Shown: positions 6,931 through 31,990 of the stretch, one piece after another
Position numbering within the stretch: position 1 is the first letter of the stretch
Layout of the letters: each line of letters begins with the position of its first letter
Assembly: GCA_016188915.1 (NCBI GenBank)
Contig: JACPGU010000002.1
Span: 85,287 to 149,286 of the forward strand
DNA: 64,000 nucleotides
Reading direction: 5' to 3'
Source of the DNA: Candidatus Microgenomates bacterium
GTDB taxonomy: Bacteria; Patescibacteriota; JACPGU01
The notes under the pieces: model-generated
Seen by the model: the letters and a program-made list of their open reading frames with translations, nothing else
Databases searched by the model: none
What the model was told of the DNA's origin: nothing
Program-made: the position numbers and the translations under genes

Positions 6931-8037
6931 TTATTTTAACAAAATATCTATCAGCGCCGAAGCGCTTTTCTCCCAAGAAAATTGTTTTGCTCTTGTTCGG
7001 CCAAGAGTTTTCAGCTGATTTTGTCTTTTCTTATCATTTAATAAATCTGATATCTGGGTGGAAAGTTTTTTTGTATCATATGGGTCACAGTAAATAACAG
7101 CGTCTCCGCCTACCTCCGGCAGAGATGAATTACCTGAACAAATCGTGGGGACGCCATAACTCATAGCATCCAACACCGGCAGACCAAAGCCTTCATAGAA
7201 AGAAGGGAATACGAACAAAGATGCGTTGGCATACAAAGAAGATAAATCTTTTTTGTCTGCATACCCCGTAAAGATAACATTGCCTTTTTTAATTTTTTTG
7301 ACCGCATCAAATACTTTTTGATATTGCCAACCCTTGCCACCAGCAACTATCAAATCATATTTTTCCAATAAATTGCCATTGATCATGGCGTAAGCATCTA
7401 TCAAAGTATTAATATTTTTCCTAGGCTCTATCGTCCCCACGAATAAAATATATGGCTTTCGGAGATTGTATTTTTTTGCTATAGAAGATAAATCATTATG
7501 TGTATTCGACACTAAAGAAACAGCTGGATAGATTACTTTTATTTTTTCTTCTGGTAGCCCATAGTATTTCATTATATCTATTTTTGAATTATGAGATATA
7601 GTCACTATGATATCGGCTCTTTTGGCAGAAGAAAAAACATTTTTTTTCAAAAAATACAAATTTTTCTTTTCCACAAATCGCGAGTGCACCAAATAGGTAG
7701 TATCCGGTATTAAAAGTATTTTTTTCTTGGACCAAATTGGAAAGTCAACAAAATTGGTAAAAAAGAAAACGTCTGTTCTCCCTATTAAAAAATTAGCAGG
7801 CGGAAAATGAAGAAATTTCCACAGAAAGTTAAAACCTCTTTTGACGATCCCGCCCAAAGAAAATATTTTTATATTTTTTCCTCTAGCAAAAAAGCCATCT
7901 CCTAAAAGTTTGTAGCAATTGCGATCATCAATATCGAACATAGCTTTGAGTATATTTTCTAGCAAAACACCCATGCCTGTTTTTTTCTTCGGAGCGACTC
8001 TTGTGTCTATTCCAATAATCATAATAATTCCTCCCAT
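6931..8037 (-). CDS. glycosyltransferase family 1
   Basis: 368 aa. Signature EGFGLPVLDAMSYGVPTICSGNSSLPEVGGDAVIYCDP. Confidence 0.8.
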   Translation of the reverse strand: MGGIIMIIGIDTRVAPKKKTGMGVLLENILKAMFDIDDRNCYKLLGDGFFARGKNIKIFSLGGIVKRGFNFLWKFLHFPPANFLIGRTDVFFFTNFVDFPIWSKKKILLIPDTTYLVHSRFVEKKNLYFLKKNVFSSAKRADIIVTISHNSKIDIMKYYGLPEEKIKVIYPAVSLVSNTHNDLSSIAKKYNLRKPYILFVGTIEPRKNINTLIDAYAMINGNLLEKYDLIVAGGKGWQYQKVFDAVKKIKKGNVIFTGYADKKDLSSLYANASLFVFPSFYEGFGLPVLDAMSYGVPTICSGNSSLPEVGGDAVIYCDPYDTKKLSTQISDLLNDKKRQNQLKTLGRTRAKQFSWEKSASALIDILLK

Positions 8038-9173
8038 TTTTTGCGCATCACATCAATAGAGAAAAATGATAGATATTTTTTTCTGGCCGCAAAACCAAGA
8101 GTATGATATTTATCAAAATCTTTTAATATTTTATCCAATATTGCCGTTAATTCTTTATCATCGCCAGGGCAAAAAAGAAATCCGTTTTCCCCATTGTCTA
8201 TTAGCTCAGGGATACCACCTAGACGACTGGCAACAATTATTTTACCTAAAGCCATTGCTTCCGCTATCGCTATACCGAAAGACTCTCTGGCAACGGACGG
8301 CAGCACAAATATATCAGCAATATTCAAAAGGCCATTTATATCTTTTTCATAACCAGCGAATACAACTCTATCTTGTACCCCCATTTTTTCAGCTAATTTT
8401 TTAAGATTAGAATACTCCGGCCCATCTCCTACTATCAAAAGATACAGGCTCTTTATATGGTATGAATTAGCAATAGATTTAATCAAAACATCAAATCCTT
8501 TTTCTTTATGCAATCTGCCGACAGAAACTACTATCTTCTCTTGGACATCAATGCCATTGGCTTTTTTTAGACTATTTTTTTCATCATCGTTTGTTATAAA
8601 AATTTTCTTTGGGTCTATGCCTTTATAGATAATTATCAATTGGTCAGTCAGTTTTTGATCTATCATCGCCAATTGGTTTTTCACAAAACTAGATACGCAA
8701 ACGATTCTGTCAACTGATTTCGCAGATTTTAAATAAAGGGGCAATAACATATTTTTTGAAAGCCACGGCACCGGATCCAAATGTTCTACCCAAATAACTT
8801 TGCATCCATTTTTTTTAGCGATATGAGATAGTAATATTTTCTCATTAAGCCCCTGTAATATCACTGTGGTATTACTCTTTTGCCATATTTTTTTTAAAAT
8901 GAAATAAAACCGAACAAAATAAAAGAAATAAAAAATAAGAAATAAAAAAGCATACCGCCTAGATCCTGCTTCTTGCCCCCAGTAAATTTTTTTAGTTTTT
9001 GCTCCTAAAATATTTGCTTCCTCAATCAAGGGCGAATAGTTGGAAAAAAGATGAGCCTTAAAACCACCATCAAGAGCTTTGGCCAAAATATCTAAAGTAT
9101 ATCTTTCTCCTCCACCAAAAGCTTGGGCAAATTTTAGAATAATAATATTTTTTTTCATAATTCTATATTCCAA
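8019..9173 (-). CDS. glycosyltransferase family 1
   Basis: 384 aa. Signature ESFGIAIAEAMALGKIIVASRLGGIPELI. Overlaps both neighbours. Confidence 0.75.
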   Translation of the reverse strand: MEYRIMKKNIIILKFAQAFGGGERYTLDILAKALDGGFKAHLFSNYSPLIEEANILGAKTKKIYWGQEAGSRRYAFLFLIFYFFYFVRFYFILKKIWQKSNTTVILQGLNEKILLSHIAKKNGCKVIWVEHLDPVPWLSKNMLLPLYLKSAKSVDRIVCVSSFVKNQLAMIDQKLTDQLIIIYKGIDPKKIFITNDDEKNSLKKANGIDVQEKIVVSVGRLHKEKGFDVLIKSIANSYHIKSLYLLIVGDGPEYSNLKKLAEKMGVQDRVVFAGYEKDINGLLNIADIFVLPSVARESFGIAIAEAMALGKIIVASRLGGIPELIDNGENGFLFCPGDDKELTAILDKILKDFDKYHTLGFAARKKYLSFFSIDVMRKKWEELL

Positions 9174-10575
9174 TAGTTTCCCTGATAGATTGCCTGGAAA
9201 TGGCTCCGGTCATAAGCAGAACCAAAGAATATATTATAATCCCGATAGCCAAAGTCAAAGCCAAATTGTAGCCGGCGAAGTAATACATCACACCACTCAT
9301 GGCAACTGCGGCCAAAAAAGATTTTGCGAAAACAGCCCAACGGGGAAAAACAGAAAAATACCTGATAGCAACTATCGTAGCGAGTGTACAGACAGTCAAT
9401 TCGGTAAAAATAGTGGCGACAGATGCTCCTATGTATGAATAGCGTGGAATAAGATAAAGATTACCAATGATATTTAAGAAAACACTTAATATGTATATTG
9501 GCACTAATTTTTTTTGAATATCGGCCGCTACGATAAAATAACCCATCATGGTGCCGAAAAAAATAATGAACATAGCGAAAGCAAGATATTGCAAAGCGAT
9601 AGCTGATTCGATAAATCCTTCCCCTAGAAGAAAAATAGAAATAGGTCGAGCCATAGTAAAAAATATTGCCAACAGCGGAAAGGCCATCAAGGAAATAAAA
9701 TCAAAAGATTTTTGAAAGCTAAATTTAAGGCGATAATCTTTTTCTTTGATATATTTTGTCACCATTGGAAAAACAGATCCCATAAACATTGCCGGAATAG
9801 TAATCAATATCTCAATTATTTTGTAGGCCGCGCCATAGATGCCCACTGTTTTGCTATCTTTCATAATAGACAGCATAACCGTATCTATTTTAAAATAAAT
9901 AAATCCAAGAATGATAATAGCGCCCAAAGGAAAAGCCTCTTTGATGATAAACTTCATATGGATAAGGTCAAAATTGAGTCTAAAAGTGAGGAATTTCCTA
10001 GAAAGCATCCAAGATATAGCGGCCAAGGAAAAATTTCCCAAGACATACGCCCAAACAAAATAGATAACTGGTAACTCCAAGTAAATACAAAGCATCACCA
10101 AAATGAATAAGATAAAACGGGAGACAACATCACTAACGACCAATCTGTCCATTCTGAGATTGCTCTGAAATATACTGACGAAAAGTTGATTGATACCAAC
10201 AAAAAAACTAGAAGCAGTACCAACCAAAATACCTATTTTTATATCATAAGTATAATTTGGCACCAACCAAGCGACTAAAGGAGCTATTAATAGCATAGAT
10301 GTCAAAATCAATCTCCAGACAAAAATAGTACCCATTATTTTTTTAGCCCTATCTGGATTTTTGGCCATTTCTTTTACCGCTACCGTATAAAGTCCCATAT
10401 CAGACAAAATAGCAAAAAAACCCAAGAAGGCGAAGATAGTGGTAAAGTCCCCATATTTATCTACGCCCAAATATCTTGCCATATAGGCCAGCATTACGAC
10501 CGCTATGCCCGTGGTCGTCGCTTTGCCAATAATCTGGATAAACAAATTGGCTGCTATTTTTTTTGTGCTACTCAT
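9163..10575 (-). CDS. polysaccharide flippase (Wzx, MOP superfamily)
   Basis: 470 aa with about 12-14 TM helices. The N-terminus MSSTKKIAANLFIQIIGKATTTGIAVVMLAYMARYLGVDKYGDF is typical of Wzx/polysaccharide biosynthesis proteins. Confidence 0.7.
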   Translation of the reverse strand: MSSTKKIAANLFIQIIGKATTTGIAVVMLAYMARYLGVDKYGDFTTIFAFLGFFAILSDMGLYTVAVKEMAKNPDRAKKIMGTIFVWRLILTSMLLIAPLVAWLVPNYTYDIKIGILVGTASSFFVGINQLFVSIFQSNLRMDRLVVSDVVSRFILFILVMLCIYLELPVIYFVWAYVLGNFSLAAISWMLSRKFLTFRLNFDLIHMKFIIKEAFPLGAIIILGFIYFKIDTVMLSIMKDSKTVGIYGAAYKIIEILITIPAMFMGSVFPMVTKYIKEKDYRLKFSFQKSFDFISLMAFPLLAIFFTMARPISIFLLGEGFIESAIALQYLAFAMFIIFFGTMMGYFIVAADIQKKLVPIYILSVFLNIIGNLYLIPRYSYIGASVATIFTELTVCTLATIVAIRYFSVFPRWAVFAKSFLAAVAMSGVMYYFAGYNLALTLAIGIIIYSLVLLMTGAISRQSIRETIGI

Positions 10576-20629: not shown

Positions 20630-22240
20630 TTAGCAATTGGAGAGGTCGCATAGTGGCCTAGTGCGCCGCCTTGGAAAGGCGGTATATCCGCAAGGGTATC
20701 GGGAGTTCGAATCTCCCCCTCTCCGTTTATAGGGATAGATGTGCCTTTTCTGTATTATCAGGAAGGGTTTTTTTAGTATAATATCGAGTTTTTTGTTAGT
20801 CAAAGTGAAGTTCGAACCGATTGTTTTCAGGATTTGCTTTTTCGTCTCCATATTTCCAGTTTCAAACTTTATTTTGGTGTAATAAGAGAAATTAAACAGT
20901 TCCTCTACTAGTTCGAGCTGACAGTATTCTTTGTCCCTCCATTTGTTCTCTAGTGTTGTTATTTCTTGTTCTTCCTGTATTGTTTCTTTGGAGAATTTTT
21001 CACAATCCTCTGAAGTGAAAAATCCATTATCTTCCAATATCTGTCTTTTCAGATTATCCATTTTCTTTTTATTGCTTTGCCTGCGTTGCTGAAGACCTTT
21101 CAATATCTCGGTCTGAGTTTTTATCTCCTGATTGTTATGCTCTCTTGCATATTTCAAGACCCATTCCTTGAATTTATCAGAGATAGTTATACTATTTATG
21201 GTTTCTAGTAATTGCCTGTCGAGCTCTTTAGCTACTATGTATGGTTGGGAGCACTTTATCGCTTTGTTCTTTCTTGTGCAACGGTAGTAGGTGTAGTATG
21301 GGGTTTTAATGCGAGTTGCGTGGCGGTTCCTGTGTTCCTCTGCTGTTATCGAGCAACCACATTCGCCACATTGTATTAGGCCAGTGAAATCAAAGTCGTG
21401 CTTTTGTTTTCTTGGCTTACCCTTACTTCCTAGGGCATCCTGAATGTAATCAAACTCCTCTGGCGTTATCAGGGATATATGATGGCCTTGCTTAATGCTT
21501 CCTCTGTGCTTAATCATTCCGTAGTAGAACGGGTCGGTCAAAATCCTATAAAATGTGCTCCTAGACATTGGGCCACCACCCATTTTTTTAGTTCTTGGAG
21601 TTCGGTAGCCATACTCATTGTTTAGTGTTTCCAGAGCCTGTCTAACTTCGTATTTGTCATACAGGATTAGCTCTAACGACTTTCTTATTAGGTTAAATCT
21701 CTCAGGGTCGGGGATGGATTCACTCAATCCCTCTCCCCTAGAACCATCGTTAATATATCCTGCTGGTGCAGAGCCAGGCCTTAACCCTCTCTCGAACTTC
21801 TGCCTATACCCCCTCAGGATATCCTCACTTTTATTGTCGTTTTCTAACTTTGCCTGATTGCAAATCATACTAAAAAGAAATTTATCATTGGGGGTATTTT
21901 TGAATACTTGGTTTGGTGTTCTAATTTCAGCTATTTTACCCGAATCCATCAGGTATACCAACATCCCAGTGTCGACAGAATTTCTCGATAACCTGTTTGC
22001 ATTCCAAGTAAGAATACCGTTAGCTTTATTATGTTCGAATCCCTTAATCATATCATTGAACACTGGTCTGCCAGGCTTCTTGGCGGTGTGAGATTCCTGT
22101 AATGTATCGCAAATATGTAAACCAATCTTTTTTGACAATACACTTAACTCCGCTATTTGTGACTCAATAGAAGCAGCCTGCTTCTCTTCTTGCTCTGACG
22201 ATTTTCTTGCGTATAGAATATAATTTATTTTTTCTTCCAT
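20630..22240 (-). CDS. large serine recombinase (integrase), 3' end antisense to tRNA-Ser
   Basis: 536 aa. Resolvase-type catalytic N-terminus YILYARKSSEQEEKQAASIESQ. Central recombinase domain and a Cys-rich zinc-ribbon region (CGECGCS...YYRCTRKNKAIKCSQPY). The last roughly 30 codons lie entirely within the tRNA-Ser gene on the opposite strand. Confidence 0.85.
   Translation of the reverse strand: MEEKINYILYARKSSEQEEKQAASIESQIAELSVLSKKIGLHICDTLQESHTAKKPGRPVFNDMIKGFEHNKANGILTWNANRLSRNSVDTGMLVYLMDSGKIAEIRTPNQVFKNTPNDKFLFSMICNQAKLENDNKSEDILRGYRQKFERGLRPGSAPAGYINDGSRGEGLSESIPDPERFNLIRKSLELILYDKYEVRQALETLNNEYGYRTPRTKKMGGGPMSRSTFYRILTDPFYYGMIKHRGSIKQGHHISLITPEEFDYIQDALGSKGKPRKQKHDFDFTGLIQCGECGCSITAEEHRNRHATRIKTPYYTYYRCTRKNKAIKCSQPYIVAKELDRQLLETINSITISDKFKEWVLKYAREHNNQEIKTQTEILKGLQQRRQSNKKKMDNLKRQILEDNGFFTSEDCEKFSKETIQEEQEITTLENKWRDKEYCQLELVEELFNFSYYTKIKFETGNMETKKQILKTIGSNFTLTNKKLDIILKKPFLIIQKRHIYPYKRRGGDSNSRYPCGYTAFPRRRTRPLCDLSNC
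20639..20725 (+). tRNA. tRNA-Ser (anticodon GGA), class II with long variable arm
   Basis: Hand-folded. Acceptor GGAGAGG/CCTCTCC, D-stem GCAT/GTGC, anticodon stem CCGCC/GGCGG with loop TTGGAAA, 6-bp variable arm ATATCC-GCAA-GGGTAT, T-stem GGGAG/CTCCC with loop TTCGAAT, discriminator G. Confidence 0.85.
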
Positions 22241-22953: not shown

Positions 22954-24249
22954 TTATATTCGTCGTTCTATAAATTTATCTTGAAACTTTTCAATAGTCT
23001 GGAACGACACTTCGTTGAAGTTAAATATCTTGAAAAGCTTTATGCATAAATCATTTGCTGTTTCTTTCCATAAAGACTTTAGTTTTACCGATGACACTCT
23101 TTCGTCCAAAGATACTACGGATTCACGACAAATATACCAATCGTAAAGCAAAATATTAAAGTCGTAGGATTTTAGCTTTCTATCTTCAGCACCGTAAAGT
23201 TTTATACCAATATCAATATCGCCATCGTAGTTTAGCTCATCTACATAAAACTGTTTAGAGAATAAGAGAAATTCTGTTATTGAGTATATGGCTCCTATAT
23301 AGCTTAATGCTTTGCCTGTGTCGGTTTCGTCCTGTTTTGCACCGTCTTCTCTTAGAGTGATTTTGTAAACAAAAAGACCGCTCTGGAAAAGACGGAAAGC
23401 TTCATAATGCTTTGGTTCAAATTTTGTCCACGACTGAACACCTTTTGAAAAGTTAGCAAAATCGTTTTTATCAAGATGTGGAAAATCCCACCCCCTCAAT
23501 TGAACTCTCTGGTTCTCAACTGCTTGTTTTACTTTGGTTATATCTGGAATTAAGTCTTTTTTATATTCGGTTGGTTTTACCACTATTTCCCAATATCCAT
23601 ATTTTTTTAACTCTTCTCCTATTTTTTTCTCGATATAGTCACTGGCTTCGACCAACTCATCCTTGTAATCGTCATTTTCTTCTGTATTGCTGGGTCTTCC
23701 ACTAAACAGTCGTCCAATCTGATTCAATAGAAAATCTCCTTTCTTGGTCATTGCCCTACCAAGTAATTCTCGCATTTCCGTTGAAGATGGTATGGCTTCG
23801 CTCGATCCCTTTTCCGTTCTAATATAAATGCCCCCATCTTTTAGTATCGGTTGCTGTTTTGTATTCTGATTACTCCTCTTGCATATTATTGGTTCTTCAT
23901 CGAATTCGGGTACTTCTATTATGACAAGGTTCTTTCCTTTATAAATAGGTCGTTGAACATAAACTGTAAATTTAGGGTCTGTATAACTATGCAATTTATT
24001 ATTAAAGGAAGTCTGGTCAAAGGACGCGAGATTCTCATCGGATAAACCCTCTACTGTGCCGTCATCCTTTATGCCAATAAAAATTCTCCCACCGTTTTTA
24101 GTGTTTGCCATCGCCAATATGTCTTTTATGACACCGAGATGACAATCTTTATCAGTGTTGCAATTAAAATCTTCCTTAAAGTCGACATTGGCTGTCTCTG
24201 CTCTCGATTTAAATATTTGCTCTAGCTCTTCTTCTGGGTATTGCGACAT
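22954..24249 (-). CDS. Schlafen-like AlbA_2 (putative DNA-binding) domain protein
   Basis: 431 aa. The N-terminal 120 aa, FKEDFNCNTDKDCHLGVIKDILAMANTKNGGRIFIGIKDDGTVEGL, match the AlbA_2/divergent-Schlafen pattern (E..EfK....DK...i.k.isAfANt.GG.l.iGv.DdG.i.G). The C-terminal 250 aa are unassigned. Confidence 0.55.
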   Translation of the reverse strand: MSQYPEEELEQIFKSRAETANVDFKEDFNCNTDKDCHLGVIKDILAMANTKNGGRIFIGIKDDGTVEGLSDENLASFDQTSFNNKLHSYTDPKFTVYVQRPIYKGKNLVIIEVPEFDEEPIICKRSNQNTKQQPILKDGGIYIRTEKGSSEAIPSSTEMRELLGRAMTKKGDFLLNQIGRLFSGRPSNTEENDDYKDELVEASDYIEKKIGEELKKYGYWEIVVKPTEYKKDLIPDITKVKQAVENQRVQLRGWDFPHLDKNDFANFSKGVQSWTKFEPKHYEAFRLFQSGLFVYKITLREDGAKQDETDTGKALSYIGAIYSITEFLLFSKQFYVDELNYDGDIDIGIKLYGAEDRKLKSYDFNILLYDWYICRESVVSLDERVSSVKLKSLWKETANDLCIKLFKIFNFNEVSFQTIEKFQDKFIERRI

Positions 24250-24409: not shown

Positions 24410-25198
24410 TCATTTAATATCTATGTCGTCCATATCAATATCCATAAGCTCTCTAAATTTTTCGGCTATGCTTTTCCATTTACCTGCCGTTGGTTCGGAA
24501 ATATCTATTACTAACTCGCCATTAAGGTTTTTCTTTATATACTTATGTTTCTTGATTTTCTCATAAAAAATTACTTCCATAAATTCATTTAGTAAGCTAA
24601 GTGTCGTCTTGATAGCCATAAACACCCCATAATGATATTTCTCGTGTTCTTTTTTGTAACCACCACCAATCCAAAGTGTAGGATTTGTCTGGTCGAGATT
24701 TCCCTTGGGGGCAGTATGTAAGAGGCTTATATGCGAAATATAGTTGCTTAGTACTCCATACTCCTGCCCAGCCAATGGAATAGCTTTGGTGGCAATTGAG
24801 ATAGCCTTTGTAGAGTCATACTTATTCGATTTTAACTGTATCAGTTTGTCGGGGTTAGAATGTATATCAAAAGCAGAAGCCACTGTTTCTACTACCATTC
24901 TTAAGATTGTCTGTGGCTCCAAGATATGTCCTCTTCTAAAGATTTCTATTGCAGATATTATTGACCCAAGCCCATTCCATAAAAAAATAGCGGATTGAAA
25001 ATCTGCATCAGATAGAGCATTCTCTCCTTCAGAATCAATAAGACCGATAAGGGTTTCTAATGACTCGGCTATTTCTTCTGCGAGACCATAGAATATCTCG
25101 TCATAATTACTATCAAAATCTTGGGCGACAAGGTCGCTTTTTGACTTTATATGTCCCAAAACGGTTTCTGTTGTAATTGGTTGCCTAACCGTATCCAT
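24410..25198 (-). CDS. hypothetical protein (island cargo)
   Basis: 262 aa, no recognisable motif. Acidic C-terminus MDIDMDDIDIK. Confidence 0.35.
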   Translation of the reverse strand: MDTVRQPITTETVLGHIKSKSDLVAQDFDSNYDEIFYGLAEEIAESLETLIGLIDSEGENALSDADFQSAIFLWNGLGSIISAIEIFRRGHILEPQTILRMVVETVASAFDIHSNPDKLIQLKSNKYDSTKAISIATKAIPLAGQEYGVLSNYISHISLLHTAPKGNLDQTNPTLWIGGGYKKEHEKYHYGVFMAIKTTLSLLNEFMEVIFYEKIKKHKYIKKNLNGELVIDISEPTAGKWKSIAEKFRELMDIDMDDIDIK

Positions 25199-25223: not shown

Positions 25224-25805
25224 CTATTTGAAACTAGAAATCGCATTTTGTACTGTCGATTTTGAGATGTTTACCATACTTGCTATTCTCCTAACAGACA
25301 ACCCTTGCTGTCTTAATTCACTTATCCGAACAATATCAATCTCTGATGCTGGTCTGCCTATTTTCTTTCCTTTTGCTCTTGCCTTTGCCATTCCTGCCCT
25401 CACCCTCTCTTGGATTATTGACCTCTCAAATTCTGCGAAAGCAGATATCATTGTGAACATTACCTTCCCTGTCGGTGTCGATGTGTCTATCGCCTCTTGA
25501 TAGCTCACAAAGTCTATTCCTAGCGAATTAAAGGTATCCAGAGAGGTTATGAGTTGCTTTGTGCTTCTACTGAACCTATCAAAGCGAAATACCACCACAC
25601 AATCAAATTTTCTCTTGTGAGCGTCATTTAATAGCTCCGTAAGGGCCGGTCTGTTTTCTTTGCTTCCGCTATCCGTATCAGTGTAGCTTCTGAATACCTC
25701 CCAGCCTCTATTTTTCACATACTCTTGTAATGGTATCAGTTGGGTATCGAGGTCTTGGTTCTTATCTGTGGTACTTATACGAGCGTAGATTGCAATTTTT
25801 TTCAT
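25224..25805 (-). CDS. small serine recombinase (resolvase/invertase family)
   Basis: 193 aa. Catalytic N-terminus IAIYARISTTDKNQDLDTQ. C-terminal HTH LSVRRIASMVNISKSTVQNAI. Confidence 0.8.
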   Translation of the reverse strand: MKKIAIYARISTTDKNQDLDTQLIPLQEYVKNRGWEVFRSYTDTDSGSKENRPALTELLNDAHKRKFDCVVVFRFDRFSRSTKQLITSLDTFNSLGIDFVSYQEAIDTSTPTGKVMFTMISAFAEFERSIIQERVRAGMAKARAKGKKIGRPASEIDIVRISELRQQGLSVRRIASMVNISKSTVQNAISSFK

Positions 25806-26522: not shown

Positions 26523-28073
26523 CTATTTGCAGGGTTCGTGTAGGGTTCTACTGGGATATGCTTTCTGTACAGCTTCTAAACTCGGAAAAGATTGTAGATA
26601 TTTTGTAGAGAGATTCTTATAGGCCGAGTCTGTATCGCAATAATAAAGATATGCTGTGCCATAAGAGCTCGCATAATAAGTGTGTCCAGATGTGGTTTGC
26701 GGGGCAGGGACTGGAGTGGGCGTTACTGGTGCTGGCACAGGGCTAGTTGGTGCTGGTGTGGTGGTAGTTGGTGACGAACTTGTTGTATTGCCGCTACAGG
26801 TAGTCGAGCTCCATAATCCCTTCTGCCCACTTCTCGCTTGTTTCTCTGCTTCTTTGAACTCGGCTTGGTATTTATATGGGATATCGTATGTATATTCGTG
26901 AGCATACCCATCACCAATCATTTGCTTGTTAAAAAATGTGCCATTTTCAAGATAAACATAACGCAATAGCCGACCATATTTGTCCCTATCCCCTTGAGTC
27001 GCATCAGATTCAAGCTTAACTTTCTTCCCCGAAAGCAATGCCTTCGCTCTATTGGAAGCCTCAACACCAAAACACTGAACTGGTTTTCGAGGGTCAACAG
27101 TTTCAGGAGTATCTACACCTATTAGACGAATCGTTTCTGTCTTTCCGCTAACACTGGCCTTAAAAGTATCGCCATCCGTTACGGAAACAACGCCATAATA
27201 CTGTGTAGTGGTCTGGGTGGGCGTTGTCTGGTTGCTCTGGGTGTTTGAACCAGAAGATGACTGACTAGCGTCCGTTTTGTTGTCTTCCCCTGTTGTTTGG
27301 GATTCTTGATTTGCCTCCTCCTTCTTTGGTGGAGTATAGGTTATTTTTATATCCTTTCTGTCGCTTTGATTCCCTGCTTCATCTATAGCTATAAGATAAA
27401 AATTGTTCTCTCCTTCATTCAGGCTGACTGAATCAACGGTAATTTCTTCGCTGGATTCTCGTACCTCTTTAATTTTTTTGTTGTCTGAACCAAAAAGTTC
27501 TATTCTTGCGTTTTTCTCTGTTTTTCCTTTTATATCTGTCTTGTCTTTGTCGCTAGTAATCTCTGTATTTTCAAGTTCTATGTTTGGCTTTTGTGTATCA
27601 AGAATAATTTTTTTAGTAGCACTTTTATTTGTACTGCCATTACTGTCTGTTGTGCTTACATAAACTGTGTTTTCACCTTCATTGAGCGTAAACTCTCCAA
27701 AAATGAACTTTCCGTTGGAATCGGCAATCACTTCTTGGATTTCTTGATTATTTATCATAAGTTTCGCTTTTGTCCCGCTTTCAATATGGTAGCCAGAGAC
27801 AACAACCGCCTTTTGATTAGTCGGACTTTTTATTTCATCTAAAAAAGGTTGTCCTTTTGCCGACAAGGACATTATCAGAATCAAAAACACCACAACAACT
27901 ATGGTGGCAATGATTTTATAGACTCGTCCCCATTTGGTCTTCGCCCAAATAGTCCAGACAGCAATAAAGGGTAATAAGAGAATGATAACTGGTAGTAAAA
28001 CGATGATGGCTACAATGCCCCACCATTTTGCATACCATCCTCTTTTTTTGGTTTTTACTTCGGTGTTTTCCAT
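26523..28073 (-). CDS. membrane-anchored secreted thermonuclease (SNase-like) with Ig-like domains
   Basis: 516 aa. N-terminal TM helix, then two beta-sandwich-like regions, then an SNase core VSVTDGDTFKASVSGKTETIRLIGVDTPETVDP...RDKYGRLLRYVY. Ends in a Pro/Thr-rich linker and a Cys-containing C-terminus. Confidence 0.7.
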   Translation of the reverse strand: MENTEVKTKKRGWYAKWWGIVAIIVLLPVIILLLPFIAVWTIWAKTKWGRVYKIIATIVVVVFLILIMSLSAKGQPFLDEIKSPTNQKAVVVSGYHIESGTKAKLMINNQEIQEVIADSNGKFIFGEFTLNEGENTVYVSTTDSNGSTNKSATKKIILDTQKPNIELENTEITSDKDKTDIKGKTEKNARIELFGSDNKKIKEVRESSEEITVDSVSLNEGENNFYLIAIDEAGNQSDRKDIKITYTPPKKEEANQESQTTGEDNKTDASQSSSGSNTQSNQTTPTQTTTQYYGVVSVTDGDTFKASVSGKTETIRLIGVDTPETVDPRKPVQCFGVEASNRAKALLSGKKVKLESDATQGDRDKYGRLLRYVYLENGTFFNKQMIGDGYAHEYTYDIPYKYQAEFKEAEKQARSGQKGLWSSTTCSGNTTSSSPTTTTPAPTSPVPAPVTPTPVPAPQTTSGHTYYASSYGTAYLYYCDTDSAYKNLSTKYLQSFPSLEAVQKAYPSRTLHEPCK

Positions 28074-28297
28074 ATCGTTTGGTTATTTATAAACACAAAA
28101 AAGGTCACCTGAACTAGCGGTGTAACCTTGCGGACACACCCGCTATCCTTTCGGATAGTGACCTCAACGACGAAGTACCAGTCAGATGACCGTTCTTGTC
28201 GTTGAGGATTTCATAACCATACCTCAAATTACTTCGAGGGTTAGGTTAATACTCTAAATTGTAAATATACTCTATCATAAAAATCTACCAGAGTAAA

Positions 28298-28930
28298 CTA
28301 CCCATAAAACTTCCATTTCTTCTTTAATTCTTCTTGATAGCAGTCAAAGGATTCATCTTCATTTTCAATTAAAGACCATTGTGAAAACCAAAGTCGCACT
28401 CTTTTTTGTTTATCTTCTTCCGTTCCATCTTGCCATCCCCCAAACCTCTTTTTTCCTATAGCCGTATGGGAATCTATAAAAATTTCTTTTATCTCTGGAA
28501 AATTTTCATCCTTATCTATTTCGTCCACTACGATATTGGTCAGGTTATCTCCGAGTCTTGTCTTTTTATTCCTGCAAGCCAAAACTATTAGATTAACAAA
28601 GGGGAGAAATCCATCTCCCCCAAAGTTCGTTTTGAATACTGATAGGTTCATTCTTATTTCCAGTATCCCTGCCAACGTTAGTGCTGTTGTGTTTGCTAGT
28701 CCTATGTCCTCGTGGACTATCGTGTTTAATCGTCTGCTCAAATATTTTCCGTATCCTGAAGCGTAAAATATGTAAGCAAATTTACAAGCGTCTCTTTCGT
28801 CTCCCCTCCTGATACATTTCTGAAGAGCTGAAGCAACGAGGTCAAAAGTATATCCTTTATCTTCAAATTTCTTTGCCAATTTTATCTCCCATCCTTTTCC
28901 TGCTTTTTGTTTCTTTTCTTCTGCCATCAA
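28298..28930 (-). CDS. stand-alone RarA/MgsA C-terminal-domain (MgsA_C)-like protein lacking AAA+ module
   Basis: 210 aa. FDLVASALQKCIRRGDERDACKFAYIFYASGYGKYLSRRLNTIVHEDIGLANTTAL...LIVLACRNKK lines up with the RarA C-terminal pattern [47 protein letters not shown]...VYLACAPKS. Confidence 0.5.
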   Translation of the reverse strand: MMAEEKKQKAGKGWEIKLAKKFEDKGYTFDLVASALQKCIRRGDERDACKFAYIFYASGYGKYLSRRLNTIVHEDIGLANTTALTLAGILEIRMNLSVFKTNFGGDGFLPFVNLIVLACRNKKTRLGDNLTNIVVDEIDKDENFPEIKEIFIDSHTAIGKKRFGGWQDGTEEDKQKRVRLWFSQWSLIENEDESFDCYQEELKKKWKFYG

Positions 28931-29120
28931 TTTGTTTTAGTTATGTTTTTATTTTAGTTTATGTACCCACTGTGTCAATAGGATTTTAGCTTAACCAAGG
29001 GTCTTTTCTGCCATCACACAACATCGTGTACAACCCTTGCTGTCTTGAATGATGGGTTTGATTTAAGTCATTATTTGTGCGATAATACAAGCGAATTACA
29101 GGTAATAGCGTGTAAAAACA

Positions 29121-30569
29121 ATGTCAAATATAGACTCGCCTCAATATCTATCAAGCAAGGACATCGGAGTTTTGAAAAAAACCCTTGTCTCGTTTGCAAT
29201 CGACACATCAAAAGACAAACGAATCGGGCAACCCTATTTCCAGAACAATGAGCAATGGGAATTTTTCTATTTATACTTTAAAAAACACGCAGAGGAAGAT
29301 ATAAAGAAAATCTGTAGCAATATCATAAGCAATCATAAAGAGATTAAAAAGACGATATTTTTTGATGCAATCTACGATATATTCCAAAGAAATGTTTTTT
29401 ATGCTATTTTTCGAGGCGAATTCACCGCTGTGGCGTTAAAAACCGAGAAATTTGATGATGGCAGTATGGCTATTGACCTCGCTCCTCGTAAAGTGGGTTT
29501 AGATACATTCATTAAATATTCTGATGACTTAGCTATTCCGATTGTCGAGCACATAAACCAGCAGATAGCCAATAAAATATCTTTTTACAAGAATCATAGA
29601 GTGATAACGTGGGTGCCAGTTACCAACTTACGCATAGACAAAGATGTATGTTTTGAATTTGCCAATGTTAGTTTTATCTCTAAAGAGTGTCCCGCTCTTA
29701 CGGAAAATTTTGTAAAGTGGGTTAAAATGGATAAGTTTCGAGATGGCGAGAGGACAATGCTTAGAGATTCTGGAAATTTTGCTATTATAAAGTTCGAGGG
29801 CTGTTCAGCACCAAAAGCAATCTTTGATTTAAGTAGGCCATATTTCAATAAAGTGTTTGGTGTCCTCCGTCTATTGCTAGATTGGGCAGAGGTAGAAGGA
29901 GAACTTATAGGGACAAAGCAGTCATTGGAGACAGAATATACCGTGATTTATTCTGAGAGTAGTCACGATAACTCCACGATGACAGCAGTGATGCCAGAAA
30001 TAAATAGCGATTTCTTTATTGCAAGAAATGAATATTGGATACGTTGTCCGATAATTAGCAGTAAGAGCATTGAGCAAATATCGAACTCTCCTAACCTCAA
30101 AGCCACAAATGCGTTATTGGAAAGGGCATATAACAGTAAGAGTACCTCATTGGATAGCAAGATTTTTGACTCATTATTTTGGTATTCAGAAAGCTTAAAA
30201 CATTTTACTACTCCCCATAAACTTGTTGGATTTGTAACTGCCCTAGAGACTATTCTTACAAGCAATAAGCTAACAGAGGGTTTTTATGACAAATCAATAT
30301 CGGAAATGTTCTCAGAACGAGGAGCTATAGTGTTGTGCGATAGCTATGAAGATAGATTGGAAATGAAACGAAAACTAAAAGGGATATATCGCATAAGAAG
30401 TATATTGGTTCACGGTTCTGGAACGGGTAGCATATCAGATTCCGAAATCACCGATGCTCATCATCTAGCCACAGGCATTTTGTTGGGAGTCATTGACTTA
30501 GCGAACAAAGAGAATATTTCTTCAGTAGAAGAACTGAACGATTATTTTCAAAAAGTATTACTGTCCTAG
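29121..30569 (+). CDS. HEPN-like (Rx4-6H) domain protein, possible abortive-infection/defense effector
   Basis: 482 aa. The C-terminal alpha region carries KLKGIYRIRSILVHGSG (R-x4-H and R-x6-H). The N-terminal 300 aa are unassigned. Confidence 0.4.
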   Translation: MSNIDSPQYLSSKDIGVLKKTLVSFAIDTSKDKRIGQPYFQNNEQWEFFYLYFKKHAEEDIKKICSNIISNHKEIKKTIFFDAIYDIFQRNVFYAIFRGEFTAVALKTEKFDDGSMAIDLAPRKVGLDTFIKYSDDLAIPIVEHINQQIANKISFYKNHRVITWVPVTNLRIDKDVCFEFANVSFISKECPALTENFVKWVKMDKFRDGERTMLRDSGNFAIIKFEGCSAPKAIFDLSRPYFNKVFGVLRLLLDWAEVEGELIGTKQSLETEYTVIYSESSHDNSTMTAVMPEINSDFFIARNEYWIRCPIISSKSIEQISNSPNLKATNALLERAYNSKSTSLDSKIFDSLFWYSESLKHFTTPHKLVGFVTALETILTSNKLTEGFYDKSISEMFSERGAIVLCDSYEDRLEMKRKLKGIYRIRSILVHGSGTGSISDSEITDAHHLATGILLGVIDLANKENISSVEELNDYFQKVLLS

Positions 30570-30595: not shown

Positions 30596-31129
30596 TTAAC
30601 AGCTTCTCCTTATTCCCAGCTTTATTTCAAAATCTATAAGTGTCTTGGTGGCTTCTAAAGCAAATTTCAATGCTTTGTGCCTTGCTCTAAGAGGCATCTT
30701 GGTTGTTTCTTCGTAGTCTCTCCCTAATTCTTGGTACCTTTTCATAGCTTCTTGGCAAATCGCAATGAGTGATTTCAGGGAATCAAATTCCTGTTTTTCA
30801 TAAACAATTTTTATCTTTCTAAAAAAATATGGATTTCCACTAATAATTACTGCTGAATCTTGTGTTAAGAGATTATTTCTATAATTATTTATAACAGTGT
30901 GGGACGGGATACTTATATTGGGATAATTTATACGGTTGCTTCTAACCAAATACTCTAACTCTGACTTAACTTTTCTTGAAGAATAACCACCGATTACCAT
31001 TTGCCTTAATTCATCCTCTAGCTCCGTTGGGAGAGTAGCTATCTTATTTTTATACCCATAGTCCTTTAGCAGGAGCATTTCTGCTAAGTTATCGGTATTT
31101 CTTTTGATTTGTTCTTCGGTCATTTTCAT
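30596..31129 (-). CDS. hypothetical protein
   Basis: 177 aa, no motif. Confidence 0.35.
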   Translation of the reverse strand: MKMTEEQIKRNTDNLAEMLLLKDYGYKNKIATLPTELEDELRQMVIGGYSSRKVKSELEYLVRSNRINYPNISIPSHTVINNYRNNLLTQDSAVIISGNPYFFRKIKIVYEKQEFDSLKSLIAICQEAMKRYQELGRDYEETTKMPLRARHKALKFALEATKTLIDFEIKLGIRRSC

Positions 31130-31304: not shown

Positions 31305-31990
31305 GAAAAGCGCGGGGCGTGATGCCCCGCGATAAAATGTATGCTTCAAGCGATCTGCGAGGGGCGCAGATTGCCCAAAACATTACGCGTAATGTCTTAG
31401 TTTTAGTTTCCACTTCACACTATCCCCATAGTGCTTTTTCACCTCTTAATGCTGGCCAGCCACGAAGTTGTGATAATTCTCGAGATCTGACCTTGTCGAA
31501 ATCGTGAAGGACCTGGTGTTGCCGTCACAATCAGAGGCCGTCAGGGTGTCTCCTTTGTGAACCACTTTTCCCCCCAAACAACCAATGATTTCCCTCTCTT
31601 TTGTAGCTTCCCATAAAATCGGGAGTTCTTCTTTCCGCCCTTCTCTTACTGTTCCTTGATCTTGAGTTCGCATGCTCTGAGCCTTTCTGGTTCGTCTGCC
31701 GTAGACAGACTATGGTTTTTTCCTTCCTACTGAAAGGAAAGCTCTACTCTCCCTTCAGGGATTAGCCCCGAGTTATTCCCGGTTTGTTTTGGGACTAATC
31801 CAGTGCCGATAGATCACCTCCTTGCGTTCTCCTTGAGATTTTACACCAGAGCCCAGAAAGTAGGCTTTTATTTTTAAGGTCGGAAAGGTGTTCGCAACAA
31901 CATGGAGAGAAAACTGTCAGAGCATGCGAAGGCGAGCCAGTTTTCTCATCCATGTGTCGCGAACCTGCCGGAATAATAATCTTATGTTAG
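31305..31990. ncRNA. candidate large structured non-coding RNA (identity and strand unresolved)
   Basis: This is an ORF-free stretch of about 0.7 kb with visibly higher GC than the flanks. It contains local hairpins GCGGGGC-gtgat-GCCCCGC (31311-31332), ATCTGCG-aggg-CGCAGAT (31352-31374), CCTTCC-tactgaa-AGGAAAG and GGATTAG...CTAATCC. It also has a perfect 14-nt long-range complement GTTCGCATGCTCTGA (31668-31682) with TCAGAGCATGCGAA (31918-31932), and a crossing complement ATTCCCGG (31781-88) with CCGGAAT (31964-70). Confidence 0.35.

Follow-up and report, generated by a model that had tools for sequence, protein, structure and literature searches.

A candidate ApeA-like HEPN protein and a stand-alone RarA/MgsA C-terminal domain protein as probable independent neighbors in a Candidatus Microgenomates bacterium

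HEPN toxins often act together with a partner, and HEPN-MNT is an established combination of this kind. In the ApeA system a single protein brings about abortive infection by cleaving the anticodon loops of tRNAs; its HEPN-mediated dimers assemble into decamers or dodecamers to give a doughnut-shaped oligomer, it is switched on when a ligand binds in a pocket lying between its N-terminal domain and its HEPN domain, and the substitution R502A in Ec2ApeA abolishes defense (bioRxiv 10.64898/2026.01.26.701840). Here we analyze a 64,000-nt stretch of DNA (the window) from a Candidatus Microgenomates bacterium (GenBank assembly GCA_016188915.1, contig JACPGU010000002.1, positions 85,287 to 149,286), in which a gene for a 482-amino acid (aa) protein with a C-terminal ApeA-like HEPN domain (B) lies beside a divergently oriented gene for a 210-aa homolog of the C-terminal helical domain of RarA/MgsA (A). 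An earlier note, made from the sequence alone, had singled out this divergent pair and suggested that it could be a two-component toxin or abortive-infection module. Both open reading frames (ORFs) are indeed present (Table 1; all positions are those of the window), separated by a 190-bp spacer (28931-29120). The A ORF begins with TTG, and an alternative ATG one codon in, at position 28927, gives the 209-aa protein recorded by NCBI as HYV44_01675 (Candidatus Microgenomates bacterium). We consider it reasonably probable that A and B are independent neighbors in a recombinase-bearing variable region, and that B is a single-gene, ApeA-like HEPN abortive-infection RNase.

The HEPN-like character of B had been recognized from an R-x4-6-H motif at its C-terminus (YRIRSILVHG, residues 423-432). 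Since about 1.2 occurrences of R-x4-6-H are expected by chance in a protein of B's composition, the motif alone proves nothing, and the weight of the assignment falls on relatives of the protein. A word-indexed protein search with B returned two full-length relatives of 35-36% identity, B's own sequence not being among the matches; the exact protein is on record in a Logan contig from run SRR12113420. When a profile was searched against 1.84 billion representative proteins, the full-length B family was found to comprise 6 clusters (at 50% identity), and the C-terminal 140-170 residues alone were common to 931 proteins (E <= 1e-3), most of them 400-450 aa long. In an alignment of 63 HEPN relatives (mean column identity 15%), the Y, R, and H of the motif never varied, W, E, A, R, and S hardly did so, and in an alignment of 30 domain relatives E376, Y423, R426, and H431 (B numbering) were invariant; across these alignments mean column identity was 15-27%. 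A domain profile built from 30 diverse relatives was then compared with the PDB. The seven best matches were all ApeA (Ec1-Ec4ApeA, E 8.9e-07 to 8e-04), and no other PDB chain was significant. Each ApeA match consisted of two stretches, the 'ALE' helix and the catalytic helix, and counting along the alignment places the Y-x-x-R-S-x-x-x-H of the family on Y499, R502, N503, and H507 of Ec2ApeA. The motif is therefore genuine: R426 and H431 are invariant and coincide with the catalytic pair R502/H507 of Ec2ApeA, which is the alignment to HEPN catalytic positions that had been suggested as a check. As judged from these alignments, the C-terminal 140-150 residues of B form a HEPN domain in which R426 and H431, together with Y423, S427, and E376, occupy the catalytic positions of ApeA. 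In the AlphaFold2 (AF2) model of B, the mean predicted local distance difference test (pLDDT) score is 72, and the C-terminal domain scores mostly above 80. Weak Pfam matches to HEPN_Apea, HEPN_MAE_28990, and HEPN_RiboL-PSP recurred among the distant relatives of B, and some relatives gave HEPN-type matches in PADLOC (DzbB, CARF_HEPN, Cas13-ApeA, Csx1/Csm6); HEPN_Apea (PF18739) was reached at E <= 1 by only 3 of 30 relatives (best 9.2e-05), and Cas13-ApeA by 1 of 63. The HEPN domain family of B is thus effectively unannotated, with almost none of its ~930 proteins reaching Pfam or PADLOC thresholds.

By analogy with ApeA, B would dimerize through its HEPN domains and so create a composite active site from R426 and H431, while its N-terminal and middle regions (aa 1-330) would restrain the nuclease for as long as no infection-derived cue is bound. 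Once activated, B would cleave cellular RNA, most likely tRNA, given that ApeA attacks tRNA anticodon loops, and this cleavage would arrest the infected cell, amounting to abortive infection. Several observations weigh against so close a parallel. B itself had no match in Pfam, NCBIfam, or the PDB (phmmer), PADLOC gave only noise, and B fails both the Pfam HEPN_Apea model (PF18739) and every PADLOC model. ApeA proteins are ~590-620 aa long, whereas B, at 482 aa, is ~110 residues shorter; between the conserved stretches, Ec2ApeA has ~100 residues and the compact HEPN domain of B ~30. No similarity to the N-terminal and Mid domains of ApeA was detected in B, and a narrow profile of full-length B, which was blank over the N-terminal 330 residues, gave no better match to ApeA than one of 22 residues with E 1.6; homology of the N-terminal region to that of ApeA is accordingly undetected rather than excluded. 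Full-length ApeA was not found when a fragment of Ec2ApeA was compared by tblastn with plasmids and phages, nor in a word-indexed protein search. Because B fails the Pfam and PADLOC models, has no N-terminal match, is shorter, and does not carry the HEPN insertion, we do not class it within the ApeA family. B shares the HEPN type of ApeA and probably works in a similar manner.

If A and B formed a two-gene toxin or abortive-infection module, A would serve the HEPN nuclease as its antitoxin, sensor, or regulator. The layout invites this idea, as the genes are adjacent and divergent, lie 190 bp apart, and have a promoter-like site each within the spacer (Table 1); these sites are consensus matches only, and their frequency in the scanned region was not above that in shuffled sequence. 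HEPN toxins often have partners, as in HEPN-MNT, and an SSB-linked sensor is conceivable because RarA-family proteins bind SSB, the binding protein for single-stranded DNA (PMC5389604), and the HEPN defense protein DARNA is reported to sense viral SSB-bound single-stranded DNA (bioRxiv 10.64898/2026.02.22.705581). The proposed pairing was examined from both sides. A-family loci were collected by pattern scans and confirmed by tblastn. Species-representative genomes yielded 194 such loci and IMG/VR viral contigs 98; of each set 80 loci, 160 in all, were analyzed with a flank of up to 6 kb on each side. No match to the B-family or HEPN-domain profile was found within 6 kb in any of the 160, nor were homologs of the other genes of the window's island found near A-family genes. 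From the B side, the MgsA_C family profile had no match in L001, L002, or L166-L170, among which L002, L166, and L170 have flanks too short to be informative. At each informative locus the B-family gene has different neighbors: an unrelated fragment upstream in the same orientation, with abhydrolase and VanY genes downstream, in L001; SET and pyrophosphatase-like genes upstream of the B homolog in L167/L168; and, in the 36-kb contig L169, tRNA_edit and B12-binding genes on one side with small ORFs and TrmB on the other. In addition, the context of the A family is one of phage packaging and DNA-modification genes, not defense, and A and B are divergent and not co-transcribed. The proposed two-gene module is not supported by these data; it rests on adjacency in one genome, and we consider it very unlikely. 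Nor is a partner needed to explain B, since the ApeA proteins, the closest characterized relatives of its HEPN domain, act singly.

The comparison from the B side covers few loci. Scans for B-family loci yielded none in genome contigs or viral contigs, and in metagenome contigs only the contig already known, so that the context of B is drawn from exact-sequence look-ups. Most contigs with full-length B-family genes are 1.5-4 kb long, and three independent informative neighborhoods are available besides this genome. With the full-length B family so small, co-occurrence alone leaves room for a lineage-specific partnership between A and B, and the 190-bp divergent spacer could in principle permit their co-regulation. 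One such arrangement would have a captured, phage-derived A working with B as a decoy or sensor of phage interference with replication-fork proteins of the RarA/SSB type, or as a lineage-specific antitoxin; this would amount to a novel pairing of sensor and effector, and we consider it very unlikely.

A distant relative of B is found in a different setting. P0017 (L172, 1412-8556) is a 412-aa protein with the middle and HEPN regions in common with B, and its island contains genes for an HpaII-type methylase and endonuclease, Vsr, RhuM, KilA-N, and Fic (RhuM-Fic). Such surroundings are those of a classic defense island and agree with the association with restriction-modification recorded for the ApeA/BMEI1217 family (PMC3710099).

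The assignment of A, like that of B, depends on its relatives. As a single sequence, A matched Pfam MgsA_C (PF12002) below threshold (18.1 bits against a cut-off of 27, E 0.0027, residues 61-87), and RarA/MgsA C-terminal chains made up five of its six phmmer matches in the PDB. Five homologs of 180-221 aa were found in a set of 5.8 billion proteins, all five with a precomputed PF12002 match. A profile of A and these five homologs matched RarA/MgsA C-terminal chains with E 1.6e-15 to 4e-9 over profile positions 9-153, a region equivalent to residues 247-388 of E. coli RarA. Although the AF2 model of A is poor (pLDDT 56), all of its top 20 Foldseek matches were RarA/MgsA C-terminal fragments, followed by subunits of the RFC clamp loader. 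A also matched two PHROG families, phrog_33349 (E 6.7e-12, residues 6-191 on profile positions 4-183 of 239) and phrog_16866 (E 3.9e-08). The matches to the family profile, in Foldseek, and to phrog_33349 make A firmly of the MgsA_C type despite the sub-threshold Pfam score. Its signature motifs are SALQKCIRRG, a conserved motif of the family's own, and HEDIGLAN. Literature searches on MgsA_C and on RarA together with HEPN returned nothing relevant. In the earlier note this domain was called the C-terminal lid of RarA. In the Pfam architecture AAA / AAA_assoc_2 / MgsA_C, however, MgsA_C is not itself the AAA+ lid but a helical domain that follows it, and it resembles the clamp-loader collar, in keeping with the RFC chains that come after RarA in the Foldseek list.

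A domain that normally sits at the C-terminus of RarA, and that Pfam recognizes only weakly in the single sequence, might be the decayed remnant of a full-length rarA gene. No AAA domain was found within A by Pfam, and tblastn with 30 RarA N-terminal modules found no AAA+ remnant in the 64-kb window (best E 0.1, away from A); upstream of A, just 190 bp separate it from B. A has a near-consensus promoter-like site of its own, and its family has its own conserved motif, SALQKCIRRG. Its nearest relatives are 121 intact stand-alone ORFs of 150-260 aa, against which its scores are twice those against full-length RarA (median 54 and 27 bits, respectively). The intact stand-alone relatives, the score comparison, and the missing AAA+ remnant effectively refute the pseudogene reading, to which we assign a negligible probability. 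By these comparisons A is a genuine stand-alone protein of the MgsA_C type and not a truncated rarA, which bears out the earlier description of a lone MgsA_C domain with neither an ATPase module nor an upstream remnant and answers the question, raised at the same time, of whether A is a rarA pseudogene.

The further statement that the MgsA_C fold normally exists only within RarA did not hold. The family profile matched 162 ORFs in the A-family loci, 33 of which are full-length RarA (>=380 aa) and 121 of which are stand-alone (<=260 aa; 78 viral and 43 genomic), and two PHROG families hold such proteins. There are thus at least 121 stand-alone MgsA_C homologs, mostly on phage or prophage contigs. 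Neighbor clustering placed large-terminase clusters at positions +2 to +4 from the A homolog in ~57 loci, with small-terminase-like genes at +1. The upstream side was occupied by glucosyltransferase-like (phrog_842), ParB-like, and methyltransferase genes. Stand-alone genes lying just upstream of terminase genes were seen in the IMG/VR loci L086-L165 and in many of L006-L054. The PHROG label 'ATPase' of phrog_33349 is not justified by the sequences, and phrog_16866 is labeled as of unknown function. A itself appears from its sequence relationships to be an orphan copy of this phage gene family, whose members code for the helical C-terminal domain of RarA and no other part of it, and it probably arrived on a mobile element, separately from B.

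The stand-alone proteins form an unstudied phage family, whose role we infer entirely from homology and phage context. A may be an oligomerization or adaptor module, which may pair with a clamp-loader-like ATPase at loci with a gene for one next door, or attach to host RarA or to proteins of the replication fork. A remote possibility is that the family is a phage tool that hetero-oligomerizes with host RarA and disables it. Alternatively, A could be one half of a split RarA-like ATPase, with an AAA+ partner elsewhere in the genome, and act in replication or recombination, whether of the host or of a mobile element. In ~10-13 of the 121 stand-alone loci, the gene at position -1 encodes a P-loop or clamp-loader-like ATPase, and in L003 a 306-aa AAA protein is encoded directly upstream of the A homolog P0003. 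Most stand-alone loci have no adjacent ATPase, however, none is encoded near A in the window, and the ATPase of L003 is a classical AAA/AAA_lid_3 protein and not of the RarA type, so that a split ATPase appears quite unlikely. L003 deserves a remark of its own. In this locus (7065-9643), P0003 lies between the upstream ATPase gene and a downstream gene for an Amidoligase_2 protein, and the trio adjoins a Wadjet JetC/JetD pair and an RHS/HNH toxin; AAA, MgsA_C, and Amidoligase_2 may here constitute a distinct three-gene conflict module.

The remaining features of the region are collected in Table 1. The gene order is rpoD, dnaG, a peroxiredoxin gene, and tRNA-Ser on the left flank, followed by the large serine recombinase, Schlafen/AlbA_2, 262-aa, and small resolvase genes, yidD, a zinc-ribbon ORF, the Ig-SNase gene, the LOOT RNA, A, B, and the 177-aa ORF; pyk, recX, and tsaD form the right flank. 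GC content is 0.372 in the recombinase block, 0.361 in the block from A through B to the 177-aa ORF, 0.408 from yidD to the SNase gene, and 0.40 and 0.46 in the flanks. The region from tRNA-Ser to pyk fits one or two insertions of mobile DNA, the boundaries being inferred, and the large serine recombinase with tRNA-Ser is likely to mark the left edge of a variable or integrated region. A repeat of the 3' end of tRNA-Ser at 31618-31639 was considered as an att site and rejected, since just 11 bases match exactly, no more than chance would give in 13 kb. Long att repeats are, besides, not required by large serine integrases. No terminase or other phage structural gene was found near A in the window by the ORF list, Pfam, or PHROG. 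A 17-nt exact direct repeat, ACAACCCTTGCTGTCTT, occurs at 25298-25314, in the 3', helix-turn-helix-coding part of the small resolvase gene, and at 29030-29046 in the A/B spacer (E 5.8e-04 against the window, blastn-short). The similarity stops at the 17 nt, and tblastn of the resolvase against 28800-29300, as a search for a resolvase remnant in the spacer, recovered only this identity. The Schlafen/AlbA_2 and 262-aa genes may be another defense gene or gene pair. The 516-aa SNase protein has a hydrophobic N-terminus, as judged by eye from its translation, and is presumably membrane-anchored; it may be an extracellular nuclease for scavenging nutrients or a protein related to defense. The LOOT RNA is on the strand of A and the SNase gene, after the stop codon of A and before the SNase start codon. 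It could be a small RNA in its own right or form the 5' leader of the SNase gene. The LOOT motif was described from OP11/Microgenomates-type metagenomic sequences; a literature search on it found nothing relevant.

Table 1. Positions of genes, sites, and other features around A and B in the 64,000-nt window
Feature	Position	Strand	Remarks
tRNA-Ser	20638-20726	+	Overlapped by large serine recombinase ORF
Large serine recombinase (phage-integrase type)	20630-22240	-	Pfam Resolvase, Recombinase, Zn_ribbon_recom; abuts tRNA-Ser
431-aa Schlafen/AlbA_2 protein	22954-24249	-	Pfam SLFN_AlbA_2 E 4e-20; PADLOC PDC-S50 (candidate defense) E 9.1e-12
262-aa protein without family match	24410-25198	-	After Schlafen/AlbA_2 gene
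Small serine recombinase (resolvase/invertase type), 193 aa	25224-25805	-	Pfam Resolvase E 2.3e-46
516-aa protein, immunoglobulin (Ig)-like domains and SNase domain	26523-28073	-	Pfam SNase E 3e-27, Big_13; PADLOC C3a212 'SNc+LTD' E 3.8e-47
LOOT RNA (Rfam RF03000)	28119-28247	-	74.2 bits against gathering score 46.4, E 4.4e-12, full-length
Gene A	28298-28930	-	Stand-alone homolog of RarA/MgsA C-terminal helical (collar-like) domain; phage-associated family
Promoter-like site for A	28978-28951	-	TTGACA-16-TAAAAT, 11/12 consensus matches
Promoter-like site for B	29058-29086	+	TTGATT-17-GATAAT with TG; weaker than that of A
Gene B	29121-30569	+	N-terminal helical region ~aa 12-98; mixed alpha/beta middle ~aa 100-280; C-terminal ApeA-like HEPN domain
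HEPN domain of B, ~aa 340-482	30138-30569	+	Conserved W354, E376 (ALE motif), Y423, R426, S427, H431
R-x4-H motif, R426-S-I-L-V-H431	30396-30413	+	Aligned with Ec2ApeA R502-N-L-I-V-H507
177-aa ORF, no family match	30596-31129	-	Convergent with B; ends 26 nt from B stop codon

This setting raises a further explanation, in which B would be the toxin of an addiction or stabilization module for the mobile region, with an unrecognized antidote such as the 177-aa ORF or a small RNA. HEPN domains are common as the toxins of toxin-antitoxin systems (PMC3710099), B lies in a recombinase-bearing block of low GC content, and the 177-aa ORF, to which no function could be assigned, ends close to the B stop codon. 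Beside B homologs, though, neither a homolog of the 177-aa ORF nor any other conserved partner was found, the convergent layout is atypical for toxin-antitoxin pairs, and an N-terminal region of 330 residues, such as B has, is a typical feature of sensor-effector fusions, unlike minimal toxins. We regard an addiction module as unlikely and retain the interpretation of B as a single-gene, ApeA-like defense protein.

Taken as a whole, the result is modest: a variant ApeA-like HEPN defense protein in a bacterium of the candidate phyla radiation (CPR), and another member of an uncharacterized phage family. If B is active, single-protein HEPN immunity of the ApeA type would extend to the ultra-small, host-dependent CPR bacteria, and at least one more N-terminal sensor region, an unrelated one, would be joined to the ApeA-like HEPN module. 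The genes for the ~930 uncharacterized proteins with the HEPN domain of B are candidate defense genes that current annotation misses. As for A, more than 120 phage or prophage genes encode the C-terminal domain of RarA alone beside terminase genes, and their products may touch the replication-fork or recombination machinery of the host.

Set against the described systems, the locus departs from HEPN-MNT (HepT-MntA) in that no ORF neighboring B has a nucleotidyltransferase-type Pfam match, A is not an MNT, and B has three times the size of a minimal HEPN toxin. A resembles the proteins of phrog_33349 and phrog_16866 in size (~180-240 aa) and in its stand-alone architecture; the phage members lie upstream of small and large terminase genes, whereas A lies between a HEPN gene and the LOOT RNA and SNase gene. 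In comparison with RarA/MgsA/WRNIP1 (PDB 3pvs; Pfam AAA, AAA_assoc_2, and MgsA_C), A is homologous to the C-terminal helical domain and has in common with RarA the motifs S-A-L-Q/H-K-x-I-R-G and E-D-I-G-L-A-N. It has ~25 additional N-terminal residues and a divergent C-terminal tail, and because it has no AAA+ module, lid, Walker motifs, or arginine finger, A cannot be an ATPase. The nearest parallel to B is ApeA (PDB 9hxb-9hxn). B likewise has a C-terminal HEPN domain after a long non-catalytic N-terminal region, and its family gene is likewise found alone in variable neighborhoods, with a distant relative in a restriction-modification island. Finally, both proteins carry (A)LE followed by Y-x-x-R-[SN]-x-[IV]-V-H-[GT]-G, and the catalytic R and H of the two are aligned.

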